This document shows positions 982 to 37,203 of a stretch of 37,203 nt of DNA, in pieces. The stretch is from Ignavibacteriales bacterium (GTDB lineage: Bacteria; Bacteroidota; Ignavibacteria; UBA10030; UBA6906): NCBI GenBank assembly GCA_037441705.1, contig JBBIRR010000038.1, positions 1-37,203 of the forward strand, in the 5' to 3' direction. Under the pieces are notes generated by a model. That model was given only the letters and a program-made list of their open reading frames with translations. It made no database searches and was not told the origin of the DNA. The position numbers were made by a program, and so were the translations under genes. The number at the start of each line of letters is the position of its first letter. Positions within the stretch are counted from its first letter, which is position 1.

Positions 982-2345
982 CAGCCTTCAACACCCGCAG
1001 CAATGACACGGACCTCGACGAACGCGATGGCCGTTCGCGCTTTGCGCTCTTTGCCGCGGCAGTCGGCGTGTTGTTTGTCATCGTTGCGACGCCGTTAGAA
1101 ACCGCGCTCGTTCCGTTCGAGGCACTCCTGGGTATTGTGTATGCTTCCCCGGAGATCTCGCACGCGCTTGCGGGCATCTCCGGGAAATTTGCTGCTTCGT
1201 CGCGTGAGGACATCCTTCGCCTTCTCGTTTCGTCGGCAATCATTCCCATCAAGAAACTCGGTTTTCTGTTCTCGGTGGTGACGTTATTGACCTTCGCTTT
1301 GAGAAACGTCAGACGGGCCCCGTGGCTCTGGATCGGGTGGACCGGGAGGCTGCGCACAGCTCTCATGATGTCTCTGGTTCTTGCCTGCTGTGTTCTTCCG
1401 CTGCAGCTGCGCAGTCTCGGCGATTCGTACGCGCGAATGAGCCTCTCACCGTTTGAAGAACCGTCCGGCATTCTCTATCGTCGGCTGCTTATGCCGGCGT
1501 TCGGCAATCTCCTCGGTCTGAGCGGTTATCTCTTTTATCTTCTCTTCTCGCTCCTGCTGACAGTGCTTCTCATCTATCTCGTTCTGTCCTGGTTTGAGAA
1601 GAACGGCGTACGGCTATCGCGCGTCGTGATGATCTCGATGTTCACGTCAAGTTTCGTGCTCTACGGATTTGAACTGCCGGGATATCCGGACCACCTCGCC
1701 ATGGTTTTCTTCATGCTGATGATGCTCGTGCCGGACTCGCCCTATGGGCGATTGAGCTTCGCGGCGCTCTCGCTTGCGACACACGAGGCGAGCATTCTCA
1801 TGATCCTGCCTGCCGCATTGCTGATGTTTCCGAAGCGCGAACGCAACGGCGTTCTGCTGCTCACTGCTGCGTACTGTCTTGCCGCGATAGCCGGACAACG
1901 ATTTGATGTCGCCTCGCTTTTCTCTTCTCACCTGTATTTCGACGCAACCGGGATCAGCGCGTGGGAGTATCTGGCGGCGCAGCCCGTTCTTGCAGCACTC
2001 GGCGTGCTTGTTGCGTTCAAGCTGTTCTGGCTTGTCGGAATGCTCGCGGCCATCGGCGCTTGGCGGAACGCCGAGCGCCCGGTTGCGACGACGATTCTTG
2101 CCTTGATGCTTCTGCCGTTGATGCTCGTTCCGTTTGCCGTTGACACAAGCAGATTTGCAGGCTTCGGATTCTTCGGACTTCTCGTTGCGGTGCGGTATGC
2201 GATCGAGCATGAAGTGCTGAAGCCGAAGACGGTCATGGCGCTTTCGGTCGTGAACCTTCTCATCCCCTCTGTCTACATCGGTGTGAATAGTGGTGTGATG
2301 CTGTTTCCCGGTTTGTACCGCGTTGTGTATTGGTGGATGGCATAA
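978..2345 (+). CDS. Polytopic integral membrane protein, function unknown (possibly GT-C-like surface-glycan enzyme)
   Basis: Ten or more hydrophobic segments. ATGA coupling to the upstream gene. Lies directly upstream of a GT9 gene. Confidence 0.7.
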   Translation: MTAFNTRSNDTDLDERDGRSRFALFAAAVGVLFVIVATPLETALVPFEALLGIVYASPEISHALAGISGKFAASSREDILRLLVSSAIIPIKKLGFLFSVVTLLTFALRNVRRAPWLWIGWTGRLRTALMMSLVLACCVLPLQLRSLGDSYARMSLSPFEEPSGILYRRLLMPAFGNLLGLSGYLFYLLFSLLLTVLLIYLVLSWFEKNGVRLSRVVMISMFTSSFVLYGFELPGYPDHLAMVFFMLMMLVPDSPYGRLSFAALSLATHEASILMILPAALLMFPKRERNGVLLLTAAYCLAAIAGQRFDVASLFSSHLYFDATGISAWEYLAAQPVLAALGVLVAFKLFWLVGMLAAIGAWRNAERPVATTILALMLLPLMLVPFAVDTSRFAGFGFFGLLVAVRYAIEHEVLKPKTVMALSVVNLLIPSVYIGVNSGVMLFPGLYRVVYWWMA

Positions 2346-2362
2346 CGTCCTAAGGCCCCGCT

Positions 2363-3415
2363 ATGTTCTCGCGCATTCTCCTGACCCGCATGAAGTTTAT
2401 CGGCGATGTCGTGCTGACCACGCCGATTATCCGCTCGGTGCGCAACGCATTCCCCGACGCCTCCATCGCCTACATGGGCGATAGGCATGCCGTCTCGTTG
2501 CTCGAGCACAACCCGCATCTCGACGAGATCATCCCGTACGACTTCGCACGTCCAACCATCATCGAACAGCCGCGCGTGGCGTGGCAACTCCGGCGACGGA
2601 AGTTCGATCTCGCCATCGATCTGTTCAACAATCCTCGCAGCGCGCTGCTGACGTATGCAACGGGCGCGCGTGTACGCGTCGGCGCTGAACGCAGGGGTCG
2701 CGGCAGGCTCTACACGATCCAGGTGCGAGATGACGGCAAGCCGAAAACCGCCATAGAGTTTCACAACCAATTCCTGCGTGCGGTCGGTATCGAGCCGACC
2801 GCCTCGCGTCCGGAAATTTTCTTGCGGGAGGACGAACGACGCGAGGCGCGCATCTATTTGCAGTGGTTGGATTATGAGCACGCACCGCTCGACCTGCATC
2901 GCCCCATCGTCGGCATCCATCCCGGAGCGACATGGCCCGCCAAGCGTTGGCTGCCCGAACGCTTCGGTGCCCTTGCGGACATGCTCGCCGCCAAGACAAA
3001 CGCACAGATCATCATCACCGCAGGACCCGACGACGATGACGCTGTTGCCGCGATGCTCAAGCACTCCTTCGTCAACGCCAAGGTGCTGCGCAATCTCCCC
3101 CTCCGCCAGCTTGCCGCGGTGATCGCACACTGTTCGGCGTACGTCGCGAACGATAACGGCACGATGCACATTGCCGCAGCCGTCGGTGTACCGACGGTCG
3201 GCATCTTCGGTCCGGGCGAGGAAAACATCTGGTTCCCCTACTCATCGGCGGAGGGGCACACGGCCTTGCGACGCGATGTGCCGTGCCATCCCTGTCATCT
3301 CAATGTTTGTAACAGAGAGGGAGAAGAGTTTATGGCGTGTATGAAGTTGTTGGATGTGGATGAAGTGTTCGCTGCGGTCGAGCGCGCTCTCGCCCATCGC
3401 CGGACACCTGCGTGA
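2363..3415 (+). CDS. Glycosyltransferase family 9 (ADP-heptose:LPS heptosyltransferase-like)
   Basis: GT9 motifs ILL..IGDVVLTTP, GIHPGATWPAKRW and NDNGTMHIAAAVGVPTVGIFGP, plus a C-terminal CHPC. Confidence 0.92.
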   Translation: MFSRILLTRMKFIGDVVLTTPIIRSVRNAFPDASIAYMGDRHAVSLLEHNPHLDEIIPYDFARPTIIEQPRVAWQLRRRKFDLAIDLFNNPRSALLTYATGARVRVGAERRGRGRLYTIQVRDDGKPKTAIEFHNQFLRAVGIEPTASRPEIFLREDERREARIYLQWLDYEHAPLDLHRPIVGIHPGATWPAKRWLPERFGALADMLAAKTNAQIIITAGPDDDDAVAAMLKHSFVNAKVLRNLPLRQLAAVIAHCSAYVANDNGTMHIAAAVGVPTVGIFGPGEENIWFPYSSAEGHTALRRDVPCHPCHLNVCNREGEEFMACMKLLDVDEVFAAVERALAHRRTPA

Positions 3416-19133: not shown

Positions 19134-19322
19134 TCAGCTATCTGTCTTCAAGTAAAAAGGTAACTGCTGACGCATACGCTCGCGCTTAGCGCGGTATGCC
19201 ATCTCCTTTTTCTTGCAGCTTGGGCAACGATAGGCACCAACCTGGCCCCTAAACTCGTTCCCGCAGTCCCGACAAATAGTGGAACCACGTTTCTTCATTC
19301 TTGCATCGCCTTTGTAGTTCAT
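19134..19322 (-). CDS. Small basic zinc-ribbon protein (62 aa)
   Basis: CRDC-x11-CPSC, Lys/Arg-rich. GAGGAG SD upstream, AT-rich upstream region, terminator downstream. Confidence 0.6.
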   Translation of the reverse strand: MNYKGDARMKKRGSTICRDCGNEFRGQVGAYRCPSCKKKEMAYRAKRERMRQQLPFYLKTDS

Positions 19323-34864: not shown

Positions 34865-35128
34865 GGTTCAAAGATAAGCAAACGCGAAGAAACTGTTCGT
34901 GCCATTTCCGTCGGAACGTCCGGCATTCCCGCATGCGCGCTGCCATCTCCCGCAGAACATGCCGGGTTTTTCCTTCAACCATGGCTCAGTTTCGGCTGGC
35001 ATGTAACGTGAGACAGTATCGAGCAGCGAAGGGAGTGGATGCAACTTTCTCAAGTTTTTTGTAAGCTGGTTGCGCTCAGTACGCAACTCCATCAATTCAT
35101 CCCAATCACAATTCACAAGGAGATTGTT

Positions 35129-36016
35129 ATGAAACACGTGCTGCGTTTGTTCGGTGTCTGGACGCTCTGCCTGCTGTTGGTGCCGCGTCTCAGCGCTCAG
35201 TCGGATGCAGAGGCCGATTCCACCGGCTTGCCCGGCGACAACTTCAGTCTGGAGGGAGCGCTTGAGATGTTCAAGAAAGCCGGTTCGCCCGAAGAGTTCG
35301 AGAAACTCATCAACACAACCGACAACCACGTTAACAATCTCGACCTCAACGGCGATGGCGAGGTGGATTATGTTCGTGTTGTGGGGAAGATGGAGAAAGA
35401 CGCGCACGCGTTTGTGCTGCAGGTTCCCGTCTCCGAGACAGAGAGCCAGGACATTGCCGTCATCGAGCTGGAGAAGACAGGAGATGAATCGGCGGTGATC
35501 CAGATTATTGGTGATGAGGACATCTACGGCGAGCAGAAGATCGTCGAGCCGAAAGGTGAAGGCGAAGAAGATTCGGAGGATGATGGCGGCAACGGAGGCG
35601 GGCCCTCCGCGGGAAGCTGGACTGAAGCCTACGCGCCGATGCCCATTGTTGTTGTAAATGTGTGGGGATGGCCGTGCGTGCGCTATGTGTACGCGCCGAC
35701 CTACCGCGTGTGGGTCTCGCCGTGGCGATGGGCGGTGTATCCGGTGTGGTGGCGTCCGTGGCGACCTTTTGCCTGGCGTGTGTGGCATCCGTTCCGCGTG
35801 CGGCATCATGTGGGCTTTGCCGTCGTGCGCACGCATCGCGTTGTGCATGCGCACCGCATCTACGCGCCGCACAGGACAGTCTCTCTCACGGTGCACAAGC
35901 GCCACGGCGGCGCGGTGACGCATTACCGAACGACACGCACGGTCACCAAAACTAAAGGCGGGGCCGTGAAGGTCAAAACCACCCGCACGAAAACAACGGT
36001 CCGGAAGAAACGCTGA
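35129..36016 (+). CDS. Exported hypothetical protein with EF-hand-like DxNxDG motif and Trp/Arg/His-rich C-terminus
   Basis: AAGGAG SD, signal peptide, NNLDLNGDGEVDY, acidic N-half, W/P/R-rich segment then basic tail. Confidence 0.8.
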   Translation: MKHVLRLFGVWTLCLLLVPRLSAQSDAEADSTGLPGDNFSLEGALEMFKKAGSPEEFEKLINTTDNHVNNLDLNGDGEVDYVRVVGKMEKDAHAFVLQVPVSETESQDIAVIELEKTGDESAVIQIIGDEDIYGEQKIVEPKGEGEEDSEDDGGNGGGPSAGSWTEAYAPMPIVVVNVWGWPCVRYVYAPTYRVWVSPWRWAVYPVWWRPWRPFAWRVWHPFRVRHHVGFAVVRTHRVVHAHRIYAPHRTVSLTVHKRHGGAVTHYRTTRTVTKTKGGAVKVKTTRTKTTVRKKR

Positions 36017-36034
36017 GCGCGGCGCGATTTCAAC

Positions 36035-36062
36035 GTAGGGACGTTCCGACGAACGTCCCTAC
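36035..36062. repeat. GTAG-type REP-like palindrome
   Basis: GTAGGGACGTTC-cgac-GAACGTCCCTAC, a perfect 12-bp inverted repeat starting with GTAG, 18 nt after a stop codon. Confidence 0.65.
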
Positions 36063-36120
36063 AGGTTTTCTTGCTTCATTGCTTGAAGCCACGAGACACC
36101 GCCACACACTCCTTGCCTCC

Positions 36121-36202
36121 CGACCACGATTCACTCGATTCTCTTGATTACCACGATTACAAACCAATCATGGTAATCCTATAATCCCACAAATCACGGT
36201 CG
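36121..36202. repeat. Palindromic GATT/AATC repeat R1
   Basis: CGACCAC, GATT at 36128/37/46/55, loop, AATC at 36166/75/83/92, ACGGTCG. Confidence 0.9.
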
Positions 36203-36470
36203 AGACGGTTTGTATTTCTTGTTGTGCAGTCGATTGAATTCGAGGCTTCAGGCGCCGAAGTTTATCAAGAGGCCGACTTCAAGATTATATGCCTCGAGAT
36301 AATTCAACGCCTGCGCGAGATGCACATCCTCCAGTACCGTGAGCGCTTTGAGTTCAATCATGATCTTATCTTCTACAAGAAAATCAGCTCTTCGGGTGCC
36401 GACCTGTTGCTCCCGATAGAGAATCGGCATCTGTACTTTTCTGCACAAGTTCATACACTGCCCAATAGAC
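36194..36470 (-). pseudogene. Decayed GxxExxY-family gene (5' deletion plus in-frame stop)
   Basis: MPILY..QVGTRRADFLVEDKIMIELK...LLINFGA*SLEFNRLHNKKYKPSRP* aligns with the intact neighbour (FGARSLEFKRLHNKKYKPSEP*). TGA at 36248-50 replaces Arg, and the GxxExxY segment is missing. Confidence 0.88.
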
Positions 36471-36473
36471 TTC

Positions 36474-36554
36474 CGACCACGATTCACATGATTTGCTTGA
36501 TTACCACAATGACAGGTTAATCTCGATAATCCCTAAATCCCAAACATCGTGGTC
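36474..36554. repeat. Palindromic GATT/AATC repeat R2 (more degenerate)
   Basis: CGACCAC, GATT at 36481/90/99, AATC at 36519/28/36, CATCGTGGTC. Confidence 0.85.
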
Positions 36555-36637
36555 AGGCTTCGGTGAGACCGAGCGCATCGAAGACGACATCATCCAACGC
36601 CTTCCGGTCCGGCAGCGGATTGGGATGCTGGGATAAT
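36553..36637 (-). pseudogene. Short coding fragment between R3 and R2, resembling the C-terminal region of N6-adenine methyltransferase/type IIG-like RM proteins
   Basis: Minus frame reads LSQHPNPLPDRKALDDVVFDALGLTEA*. GC-rich relative to the flanks. Family resemblance is from memory, not a search. Confidence 0.5.
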
Positions 36638-36727
36638 GTCTGAACCACGATTCGCTCGATTCACTTGATTACCCAGATTACAAAAAATCAAGGTAATCCT
36701 AATAAACCCAAAAATCATGGTTCAGAC
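36638..36727. repeat. Palindromic GATT/AATC repeat R3 (best preserved)
   Basis: GTCTGAACCAC, GATT at 36649/58/67/76, loop, AATC at 36686/95, AAAC at 36704, AATC at 36713, ATGGTTCAGAC. Exact 9-nt spacing. Confidence 0.92.
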
Positions 36728-37101
36728 GGTTTATACTTCTTATTATGCAATCTCTTGAACTCCAAACTCCTTGCACCGAAGTTGATCAGCAAACCAATTT
36801 CCAGATTGTACGCTTCGAGATAGTTCATGGCTTGTGCAAGGTGGACGTCTTCGAGTTTGGTGAGAGCTTTAAGCTCGACACTGATTGTTTCTTCAACAAG
36901 AAAATCCACGCGTCGTGTTCCAACTTCGATGCCGTCATAATGGATCGGCATTTCAAATTCACGTGCAAACGTAAGCCCCTGCTTGCCCATTTCGATTTCC
37001 ATGCAGCGCTGATAAATCACTTCTTGGAATCCATTCCCCAGCGTCGAGTGCACCTTCATCGCACAGCCGATGATTTTTTGTGTAATATCTTCGTACTTCA
37101 T
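36715..37101 (-). CDS. GxxExxY protein (PD-(D/E)XK nuclease superfamily), 128 aa
   Basis: IIGCAMKVHSTLGNGFQEVIY (GxxExxY), RVDFLVE...VELK catalytic pattern, AQAMNYL, GLLINFG. Confidence 0.95.
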   Translation of the reverse strand: MKYEDITQKIIGCAMKVHSTLGNGFQEVIYQRCMEIEMGKQGLTFAREFEMPIHYDGIEVGTRRVDFLVEETISVELKALTKLEDVHLAQAMNYLEAYNLEIGLLINFGARSLEFKRLHNKKYKPSEP

Positions 37102-37173
37102 ACCACGATTCACTTGATTATTACGATAAAATAATCATGGTAATCCCATAATCCTAAAAATCACGGTTCAGAC
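37102..37173. repeat. Palindromic GATT/AATC repeat R4 (one 9-mer unit shorter)
   Basis: ACCAC, GATT at 37107/16, GATA at 37125, AATC at 37133/42/50/59, ACGGTTCAGAC. Confidence 0.9.
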
Positions 37174-37203
37174 ACTCTTCGCCTTCTTCAACCTATTCTG
37201 CAC
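37168..37203 (-). CDS. 3' end of a gene entering from beyond the window (possibly an N6-methyltransferase/RM protein)
   Basis: Minus frame VQNRLKKAKSV*, with its TGA inside the R4 arm. Only 11 codons are visible. Confidence 0.45.
   Translation of the reverse strand: MQNRLKKAKSV

Follow-up and report, generated by a model that had tools for sequence, protein, structure and literature searches.

The window analysed here is the whole of contig JBBIRR010000038.1 (37,203 nucleotides; contig C38) from an Ignavibacteriales bacterium (GenBank assembly GCA_037441705.1), and its end falls inside an array in which four hairpin repeats (R1 to R4) are interleaved with two copies of a GxxExxY gene and with pieces of a methylase gene. 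These repeats are probably the inverted-repeat ends, and the gene-less hairpin derivatives, of a compact, horizontally moving selfish element whose sole gene encodes the GxxExxY nuclease. Self-mobilisation is the preferred account of its spread, though it is unproven. The reading is carried by the architecture of the element, the linkage of gene and ends across phyla, presence/absence and structural polymorphism, and positional statistics, all of which are direct observations.

In its usual form, the element is about 0.5 kb long and consists of GTCTGAAC, three or four GATT blocks at 9-nt spacing, some 10-20 nt, the GxxExxY open reading frame (ORF), AATC blocks, and GTTCAGAC. This form emerges from 81 loci, comprising the best 80 of 196 close homologues of the window protein (66-84% identical) and locus L007. 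In most of them, the terminal inverted repeats GTCTGAAC...GTTCAGAC, with at most one mismatch, lie 35-135 nt from the gene. Six loci lie too close to a locus end for the layout to be counted, and the remaining 75 are distributed as follows.

Gene inside the inverted repeat, both sides: 28 of 75 loci
Gene inside the inverted repeat, one side only: 22 of 75 loci
Terminus adjoining the gene, one side or both: 17 of 75 loci
Terminus beside the gene on both sides, as in the window: 2 of those 17
No terminus found: 8 of 75 loci

The same hairpins also occur without a gene. These gene-less copies span 80-110 nt and are found singly or in tandem arrays (L069, L098, L056), with six complete ones upstream of the gene at L069. 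Three solo hairpins lie 2 Mb from the sole GxxExxY gene of one complete genome, and in the window a gene-less copy, R2, sits inside a gene remnant, the methylase duplicate.

The layout in the window is the rarer one. Complete hairpins flank the gene on either side, and the arrangement occurs twice in succession behind a type IIG methylase gene; in the second unit, which is decayed, what remains is a truncated gene, together with a solo hairpin lodged in a duplicated stretch of the methylase 3' end. The features of the array, in the direction of transcription of the methylase, are listed below.

37168..37203, minus strand: end of the methylase gene, its last 11 codons and native TGA (37168-37170); the body of this type IIG, Eco57I/MmeI-like gene lies at the end of contig C66
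37102..37173, minus strand: R4, a gene-less hairpin copy with a truncated 3' arm, directly before the ATG
36715..37101, minus strand: intact GxxExxY gene, 128 amino acids, PD-(D/E)XK nuclease family; D66, E76 and K78 conserved
36638..36727, minus strand: R3, a complete hairpin with termini GTCTGAACC / GGTTCAGAC
36556..36633, minus strand: duplicate of the methylase 3' coding end, copy B part 1 (..PNPLPDRKALDDVVFDALGLTEA), from alignment to the end of C66; 86% amino acid identity
36474..36558, minus strand: R2, a solo hairpin within the duplicated methylase fragment, with a premature TGA at 36553-36555
36436..36473, minus strand: copy B part 2, where the methylase fragment resumes (..RKEVYWAVYELVQK) and is then fused to a truncated GxxExxY gene
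36194..36435, minus strand: GxxExxY pseudogene without its first ~38 codons and with an internal TGA at 36248-36250; matches TIGR04256 profile positions 39-106 (E 3.6e-21)
36118..36206, minus strand: R1, a complete hairpin with variant termini GTCTCGACC / GGTCGGGA
36101..36119, minus strand: copy C, a remnant of the last methylase codons (..ARSV, TGA changed to TGG), from comparison with the native gene end in genome G042
36035..36062, plus strand: terminator-like GC-rich stem of 12 bp with a T-run behind the convergent 325-residue gene (35039-36016), at the end of the array's neighbourhood

The full array measures 1065 nt and is flanked on both sides by copies of the last codons of the host methylase. 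The first 13 nt of R3 encode the last GxxExxY residues and the stop, the homologous stop of the pseudogene (36194-36196) falls in R1, and the fusion point with the methylase fragment corresponds to GxxExxY codon ~39. The plus-strand hairpin at 36035-36062 is the sole terminator-like site adjoining the array, and the family of the 325-residue gene that it follows is unknown. An Rfam scan of 35900-37203 returned only a microRNA match at chance level (E 0.35; 21.6 bits, the gathering score being 100).

Repeat family and its linkage to GxxExxY genes

Hairpins of this family have arms built of four GATT blocks on the 5' side and four AATC blocks on the 3' side, at 9-nt spacing, between the termini given above. 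Both sets of four blocks are present in 23 aligned hairpins, whose termini are invariant, either as GTCTGAACC / GGTTCAGAC or as the compensated pair GTCTTAACC / GGTTAAGAC. The 5' terminus carries TGA in two frames and stops of the GAT-TAA/TAG type in the third.

The family travels with the gene across wide taxonomic distances. It adjoins the gene in 51 of the 81 loci, in many phyla, and the hosts of the homologues include Bacteroidota, Ignavibacteria, Balneolaceae, Chloroflexi, Caldithrix, Kryptoniota, Chlorobi, Leptospiraceae, Patescibacteria, a spirochaete, and a gammaproteobacterium. Inverted complementarity between the upstream and downstream sides of the gene exceeds the 95th percentile of 287 shifted controls at 57 of 78 testable loci. 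Included among these 57 are 22 of the 29 loci without a match to the family. Paralogous GxxExxY genes of the window's own genome (contigs C24 and C26) are accompanied by hairpins of the same build and a different motif (CACGAAG type); each GxxExxY subfamily has its own end motif, which is kept across phyla.

One of these paralogous loci, C26:46208-47080, contains three hairpin repeats of ~150 nt, with a GxxExxY gene in the loop of the middle copy. Two short gene-less copies there retain a remnant of the last codons of the gene, a direct view of a hairpin left over once the gene is lost. Gene-less hairpins with periodic arms of other motifs (CGCAAAG, CACAAAG and CCAAAT types) occur at C32:18986-19092 and 19156-19224, C70:2980-3254, and C1:206330-206517, all intergenic and distant from any GxxExxY or four-helix-bundle (4HB) gene. 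A profile of the four window repeats found no copies in the same genome beyond this locus, all four hairpins being local. A gapless genome-wide hairpin finder gave 17 matches at a score of at least 20; it missed the bulged hairpins of the window, hence its output is no census.

The breadth of the association bears on the simplest alternative, in which there is no element at all and the array arose by local tandem duplication of a gene and a terminator-like hairpin, with stops in place by chance. Confinement of the repeats to one locus in this genome agrees with this alternative, as does the ease with which random sequence of the same composition closes all reading frames (see below). Yet the presence of the same hairpin family beside the orthologous gene in many phyla already contradicts it. 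Moreover, the two GxxExxY copies of the array (family D1) are 72% identical over 223 nt, against ~93% for the duplicated methylase pieces, and the hairpins lack a T-run, no terminator being called on the array strand by the scan. This explanation is thus barely credible. The same disparity in identity led to the rejection of a simple tandem duplication of a methylase-end/gene/hairpin unit.

The protein itself is a clear member of its family, matching TIGR04256 (PF13366, PDDEXK_3) over profile positions 1-115 of 116 with 142.4 bits against a cut-off of 35 (E 7.5e-42). Among 41 homologues, G24, E27, Y30, D66, and K78 are invariant and E76 is conserved in at least 90%; these residues make up the GxxExxY motif and the D...ExK catalytic residues. 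The AlphaFold model (predicted local distance difference test score, 93.8) presents a minimal PD-(D/E)XK core, whose nearest solved folds are Cas4 SSO0001, lambda exonuclease, a restriction-endonuclease-like protein, and Hjc resolvases (query-normalised TM scores 0.4-0.57, E 2e-4 to 5e-2). A sequence search of the PDB gave no match below E 0.66, PADLOC gave only a weak Cas4b match (E 0.0026), and PHROGs returned a family of unknown function (E 1e-3). GxxExxY genes are present in 30 of 41 related genomes, where their distribution is patchy and multi-copy, with many C-terminal remnants. In full-text searches, GxxExxY names turned up only as a Pfam table entry marked "Unknown" and in incidental mentions. 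No description of such elements was found in the searchable literature, a scope that excludes subscription-only papers and family-database notes.

Host stops, starts and duplicated ends

The ends of the element are closely fitted to the genes around them. A chainable 5' terminus is present at 55 loci, and at 26 of these a host ORF measuring 60 codons or more reaches it without having met a stop. The host stop then begins at terminus position 4 (GTC TGA) in 10 loci, at position 11 in four, at -1 (TAG sharing the first G) in two, and deeper in 10. On the other side, a host ORF of at least 60 codons begins no more than 60 nt past the 3' terminus at 29 of 48 loci, and within 1-3 nt at 14 of those 29. 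The original prediction had proposed measuring such distances across GxxExxY loci. Counted by host context, 8 of 16 have the stop in the opening 13 nt of the terminus and 8 of 18 have the downstream start no more than 3 nt away, which bears out the expected proximity; host frames enter the terminus in the ratio 11:6:9, without frame preference, so the further idea that insertion targets a particular stop finds no support. Termini meet host stops and starts far more often than loose intergenic placement would give.

In the window, that prediction had held that every repeat supplies the stop codon of the incoming frame, and, read on the minus strand, all of its quoted codons and coordinates are correct. 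The frame that enters from the contig end closes with ...AGT GTC TGA, its stop at 37168-37170 falling in the first bases of R4; the GxxExxY ORF (ATG at 37101) ends ...CCG TCT GAA CCA TGA inside R3 (36715-36717); a short open frame ends GAA GCC TGA at the start of R2 (36553-36555); and the truncated GxxExxY copy ends CCG TCT CGA CCG TGA inside R1 (36194-36196). All four TGAs therefore do lie inside repeats. Their roles differ, however, and the cases are not independent. The TGA in R4 is the host gene's own stop, because the methylase end ...[KR]SV-TGA also occurs without a hairpin in G042, a genome of another family in the same order. There, the methylase ends ...KAKSV-TGA before a homologous hairpin, and a displaced second copy of its last ~50 codons ends ...ARSV-TGA with no hairpin after it. 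R2 does not spare a host frame: the frame before it is a ~93%-identical duplicate of the methylase 3' end, and its TGA is a premature stop in that remnant, because the reading frame resumes past R2. R3 and R1 overlap the last codons of GxxExxY itself, at homologous gene ends.

In all four repeats, no reading frame stays open: TGA is found at repeat position 4 and/or 11, and the third frame is closed at positions 18-48. Among random 88-mers of the same composition, all three frames are closed in 65% and a given frame is closed within 16 nt in 32%. Random sequence closes frames so often that any frame entering the repeat is almost bound to meet a stop there. What is informative is that real frames do run into the repeats, not the stop itself.

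The claim that R4 abuts the next start codon without a spacer holds: it ends ...AATCGTGGT, and the ATG (37099-37101) comes immediately after. One 9-nt block and the terminal TCAGAC are missing from R4, and the distance from terminus to ATG in related loci is 2-34 nt (13 loci), including an AGGAG-type site in G042; the zero spacer is accordingly a local deletion. A Shine-Dalgarno-like AAGG in the 3' terminus is present in only some copies. The description of the gene as a compact, promoterless unit stands in part: a gene-plus-hairpin module does lie between same-strand genes, and no sigma-70-like promoter was found on the array strand by a consensus scan.

The host of the array is a methylase of at least 1226 amino acids, with Pfam Eco57I, MmeI_Mtase and M_Eco57I_C matches on the C66 ORF. 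Contig C66 stops at ...GLTEAERKEVYWAV and the window continues with VQNRLKKAKSV*, so the join lies inside the methylase gene (window 37168-37203; C66 L120:2435-6112). The assembly broke at this point because ~100 nt of the methylase 3' end are duplicated in the array. Upstream of the methylase, C66 also carries a YhcG-type PD-(D/E)XK gene and an ORF6N-domain gene.

Duplication of the host end recurs at other loci, with lengths of 69 nt (L094), 21 nt (L072), and 12 nt (L111), compared with ~150 nt in the window. At L094, two direct copies of the 3' end of a type I specificity (HsdS) gene, 69 nt long and 97% identical (1309-1377 and 1968-2036), lie on either side of a hairpin-plus-GxxExxY unit, in parallel with the duplicated methylase end of the window. 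The proposed regeneration of host stops is therefore upheld insofar as the host gene end is restored in some loci; it comes about through direct host duplications of 12-150 nt, not through the hairpin TGA. Taken as a whole, the interpretation given in the original prediction is partly supported.

Elements stand beside at least 16 different host genes. Among 13 upstream hosts examined are Cas4, an Eco57I-type methylase, three HsdS, and an N6/N4 methylase, such that 6 of 13 are restriction-modification genes or Cas4. In three Bacteroidales loci (L042, L043, L045), the element lies between a Cas4 gene, whose stop is in the terminus, and a 338-codon gene that starts 1-3 nt past the other terminus. 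Such Cas4-side insertions may confuse the annotation of CRISPR loci; a study on reverse transcriptases notes a GxxExxY call at the position expected for cas4 (PMC8934634).

Recognition on DNA, RNA folding and the integron question

The hairpins could in principle act as DNA or as RNA. In the RNA-level reading, the element behaves like the intervening sequences (IVSs) of 23S rRNA: its arms would pair in the transcript and RNase III would cut them, releasing or silencing the ORF and separating host cistrons, with the gene-side hairpins serving as sites of processing, stability or translation control. Several features of the window fit. Its hairpins fold strongly as sense RNA (-46.7, -40.4 and -29 kcal/mol, the first two values being those of R3, z -10.3, and R1, z -6.6), with R4 folding weakly (-17.3 kcal/mol, z -1.3), and their mismatches comprise 18 G.U against one A.C. 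An ORF in a stem preceded by tandem heptamers is also the design of the Coxiella IVS, described as a selfish element with an S23p ORF, excised by RNase III (PMC4990558).

These signs are not general. Hairpins outside the window have no sense-strand bias (44:33), nor do arms across the gene (71:65, 55:57, 26:40), so that the sense-strand excess of G.U, considered as a sign of an RNA role, was set aside as confined to the window's own copies. For the C24 and C26 hairpins, the antisense strand gives the better fold. Covariation in the 23 aligned hairpins is not above shuffles (37/500), with 79.5% versus 78.2% of cells paired and slid controls at 23-50%. A conserved continuous helix was dropped on this ground; the spacers between GATT and AATC blocks are often unpaired. 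What is conserved thus appears to be an inverted array of sequence blocks with its termini, rather than pairing, and this arrangement points to recognition on DNA. The RNA-level reading leaves the spread between genomes unexplained and is quite unlikely as the main account, although an RNA role may yet exist in this lineage. Among public sequencing runs, none from RNA was listed as containing this sequence.

A second alternative takes up the resemblance to promoterless integron cassettes noted in the original prediction, with the hairpins as attC-like sites and the array as a CALIN, an attC cluster without a nearby integrase. The genome does encode an integron integrase, IntI (C73:53-994; TIGR02249, 486.6 bits against a cut-off of 265), on a GC-rich contig of 8.3 kb. 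The hairpin termini carry AAC...GTT triplets at the stem base, which are the most conserved attC positions (PMC4889954), and an apparently promoterless ORF followed by a hairpin in a direct array is cassette-like. However, IntI is unlinked, its contig carries no hairpin of the window's family, and no obvious cassette array lies in the 3 kb beside it. The same source describes attC sites with R and L boxes, an unpaired central spacer, extrahelical bases and a variable terminal structure, and otherwise poor sequence conservation. In these hairpins, the bases beside AAC/GTT are paired and leave no unpaired spacer; conservation across phyla extends to four GATT/AATC blocks. Where integrons combine one attC, 3' of the ORF, with each of diverse cassettes, one gene family is found here, with gene-specific repeats on both sides.

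The outer stem of each copy is self-complementary (R1 versus R3), unlike chimeric attC ends, and the ends of other GxxExxY and 4HB subfamilies lack AAC/GTT. Nor does the attC reading account for the commonest layout, in which the gene lies inside the inverted repeat (28+22 of 75 loci). Membership among integron cassettes is not demonstrable, and the integron explanation is very unlikely.

Proposed mobility of the element and its meaning

Several comparisons reveal polymorphism at the insertion sites. L012 and L019 can be compared with this genome, which has the same flanking genes without the insert; at both loci the host keeps its native stop and start, and the space between the two genes is taken up entirely by the element. 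At one syntenic site, genome G003 has a C-terminal GxxExxY remnant and one hairpin, and G007 has none. Metagenome contigs, possibly from related strains, provide further variants of the array. One (X3) joins 36102 to 37168, so that the array is absent, and beyond 37197 its sequence is unlike the methylase. Another (X1, 1722 nt) replaces the 534-nt R4-gene-R3 segment (window 36633-37168) with 1651 other letters, an alternative filling of the slot between the methylase end and the duplicated fragment; its depth is 17.4, against 24.9 for the window version, in the metagenome that best represents the locus. A third (X2) has the second GxxExxY copy together with an N-terminal part.

These observations suggest the following course of events for a self-mobilising element. 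The unit passes horizontally between phyla and comes to rest in the narrow gaps of a few bases that separate same-strand genes, frequently within restriction-modification or CRISPR loci. Any host frame reaching the 5' terminus is closed at once and the 3' terminus often lies 0-3 nt from the next start, a tight fit that may let insertions survive in operons. As an enzyme specific for its cognate ends or for cruciforms, the nuclease would act on these ends to move or copy the element. Loss of the gene from the ~0.5 kb full form would leave hairpins of 80-110 nt resembling MITEs (miniature inverted-repeat transposable elements), and these would build up beside the gene, at times as tandem arrays.

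The main rival to this account is that the hairpin-forming inverted repeats, built of short tandem motifs, are themselves the mobile or self-propagating entity. A host or unlinked enzyme, or template switching at palindromes during replication, would move them, and GxxExxY and 4HB proteins would be passengers, possibly of an addiction or defence type. The 4HB genes (TIGR02436, the "23S rRNA IVS protein" family) are central to this view. They occur in 35 of 41 related genomes, in up to 13 copies, and inverted repeats built of short tandem motifs flank them above control at 21 of 27 testable loci. Examples are C1:200250-200567 (plus strand), C1:208600-208923 (minus strand) and loci L141-L170, with inverted repeats of GGAGT/ACTCC, GTTTCAAG/CTTGAAAC, and others. 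The same architecture around an unrelated family, including the genome's own copies, favours the cargo model, as do the gene-less periodic hairpins of other motifs far from such genes in the same genome and the defence genes noted above (6 of 13 upstream hosts). The long, variable flank duplications resemble accidents of replication or recombination more than transposition. In the opposite direction, end motifs specific to each subfamily across phyla fit a protein matched to its ends, though simple co-transfer would give the same pattern, and no candidate trans-acting enzyme was identified. On balance, the cargo model is unlikely, yet it is a serious competitor.

Self-mobilisation also has to be weighed against several observations. 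Copy number is low and all four hairpins of this genome are local, such that much of the gain in repeats could be local duplication. Hairpins cluster at the gene in three complete genomes, where the counts are minima (150 of 1059-3134 candidates scored per genome). The layout of the window, with the gene outside the hairpins, is not simply derivable from the common one. The occurrence of unrelated 4HB genes in like repeats argues that the ORF may be cargo and that something else moves the ends. The sole ORF has no transposase-type domain beyond the nuclease core, and we know of no activity for a GxxExxY protein. No short target-site duplication of fixed length was seen at the termini and no flank duplication was detected at 30 of 34 loci; the long and variable duplications at the others match no known transposition chemistry. 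Clean filled/empty boundaries or a target motif were not obtained from the comparisons of L012 and L019 with this genome or of G003 with G007, the intergenic DNA being unalignable. Finally, many of the 81 loci are orthologous, leaving only ~16-18 independent events.

Known systems share parts of this design. Free-standing PD-(D/E)XK homing endonuclease genes are small selfish nuclease genes between or within host genes, often in defence loci. They differ in having no terminal inverted repeats or hairpin derivatives and one homologous site, compared with at least 16 host genes here. RAYTs are HUH/Y1 transposases, and the REPINs associated with them are abundant and dispersed. The likeness to REPIN/RAYT systems lies in a single-copy gene with family-specific palindromic repeats, gene-less hairpin doublets, and repeats matched to gene subfamilies; the element differs in its PD-(D/E)XK rather than HUH/Y1 protein, its few local copies rather than hundreds of dispersed ones, and its horizontal transfer across phyla. 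Insertion sequences and their MITEs likewise combine terminal inverted repeats and subterminal motifs with one ORF, internal-deletion derivatives, and presence/absence polymorphism. In contrast to them, the element has no known transposase fold, no short target duplication, few and mostly local hairpins, occasional long duplications of the host end, and ends at gene boundaries with stops in all frames. Integron cassettes share the compact, apparently promoterless ORF, the imperfect palindrome over the stop codon, the direct arrays, and AAC/GTT at the stem base, whereas here the integrase is unlinked, the repeats are specific to the gene rather than to the host or cassette, and the gene is mostly inside the repeat.

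A further parallel in build is the 23S rRNA IVS of Leptospira and Coxiella, which has a small ORF (S23p/4HB) in a long stem of inverted repeats, short tandem repeats before the ORF, a sporadic distribution, and horizontal transfer (PMC4990558). The 4HB family in this order has the same repeat-built inverted repeats. Unlike the IVS, which occupies helix 25 or 45, the GxxExxY element lies between protein-coding genes, encodes a PD-(D/E)XK ORF, has no sense-strand bias, and has gene-less copies. A more ambitious proposal, offered tentatively and well short of probable, is that GxxExxY proteins are the dedicated nucleases of an undescribed class of minimal elements (~0.5 kb, with 9-nt-spaced recognition blocks, ends harmless to operons, and a host end sometimes regenerated by long target duplication), with the 4HB/23S rRNA IVS elements as a sister branch.

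Members of the GxxExxY family (TIGR04256/PF13366) are small proteins that are very widespread and have no assigned function. If these proteins are the cargo or engine of a compact element bounded by its own ends, their patchy multi-copy distribution, near-identity across phyla, and C-terminal remnants would be explained. Such an element would also provide an annotation rule for a common class of intergenic hairpins and a connection, open to testing, with the intervening sequences of 23S rRNA that carry an ORF and have long lacked an explanation. The elements mark restriction-modification and CRISPR loci and break assemblies there. The design of the ends, with stops in all frames and about half of contexts flush with the next start, would exemplify a selfish element shaped against polar damage in operons.

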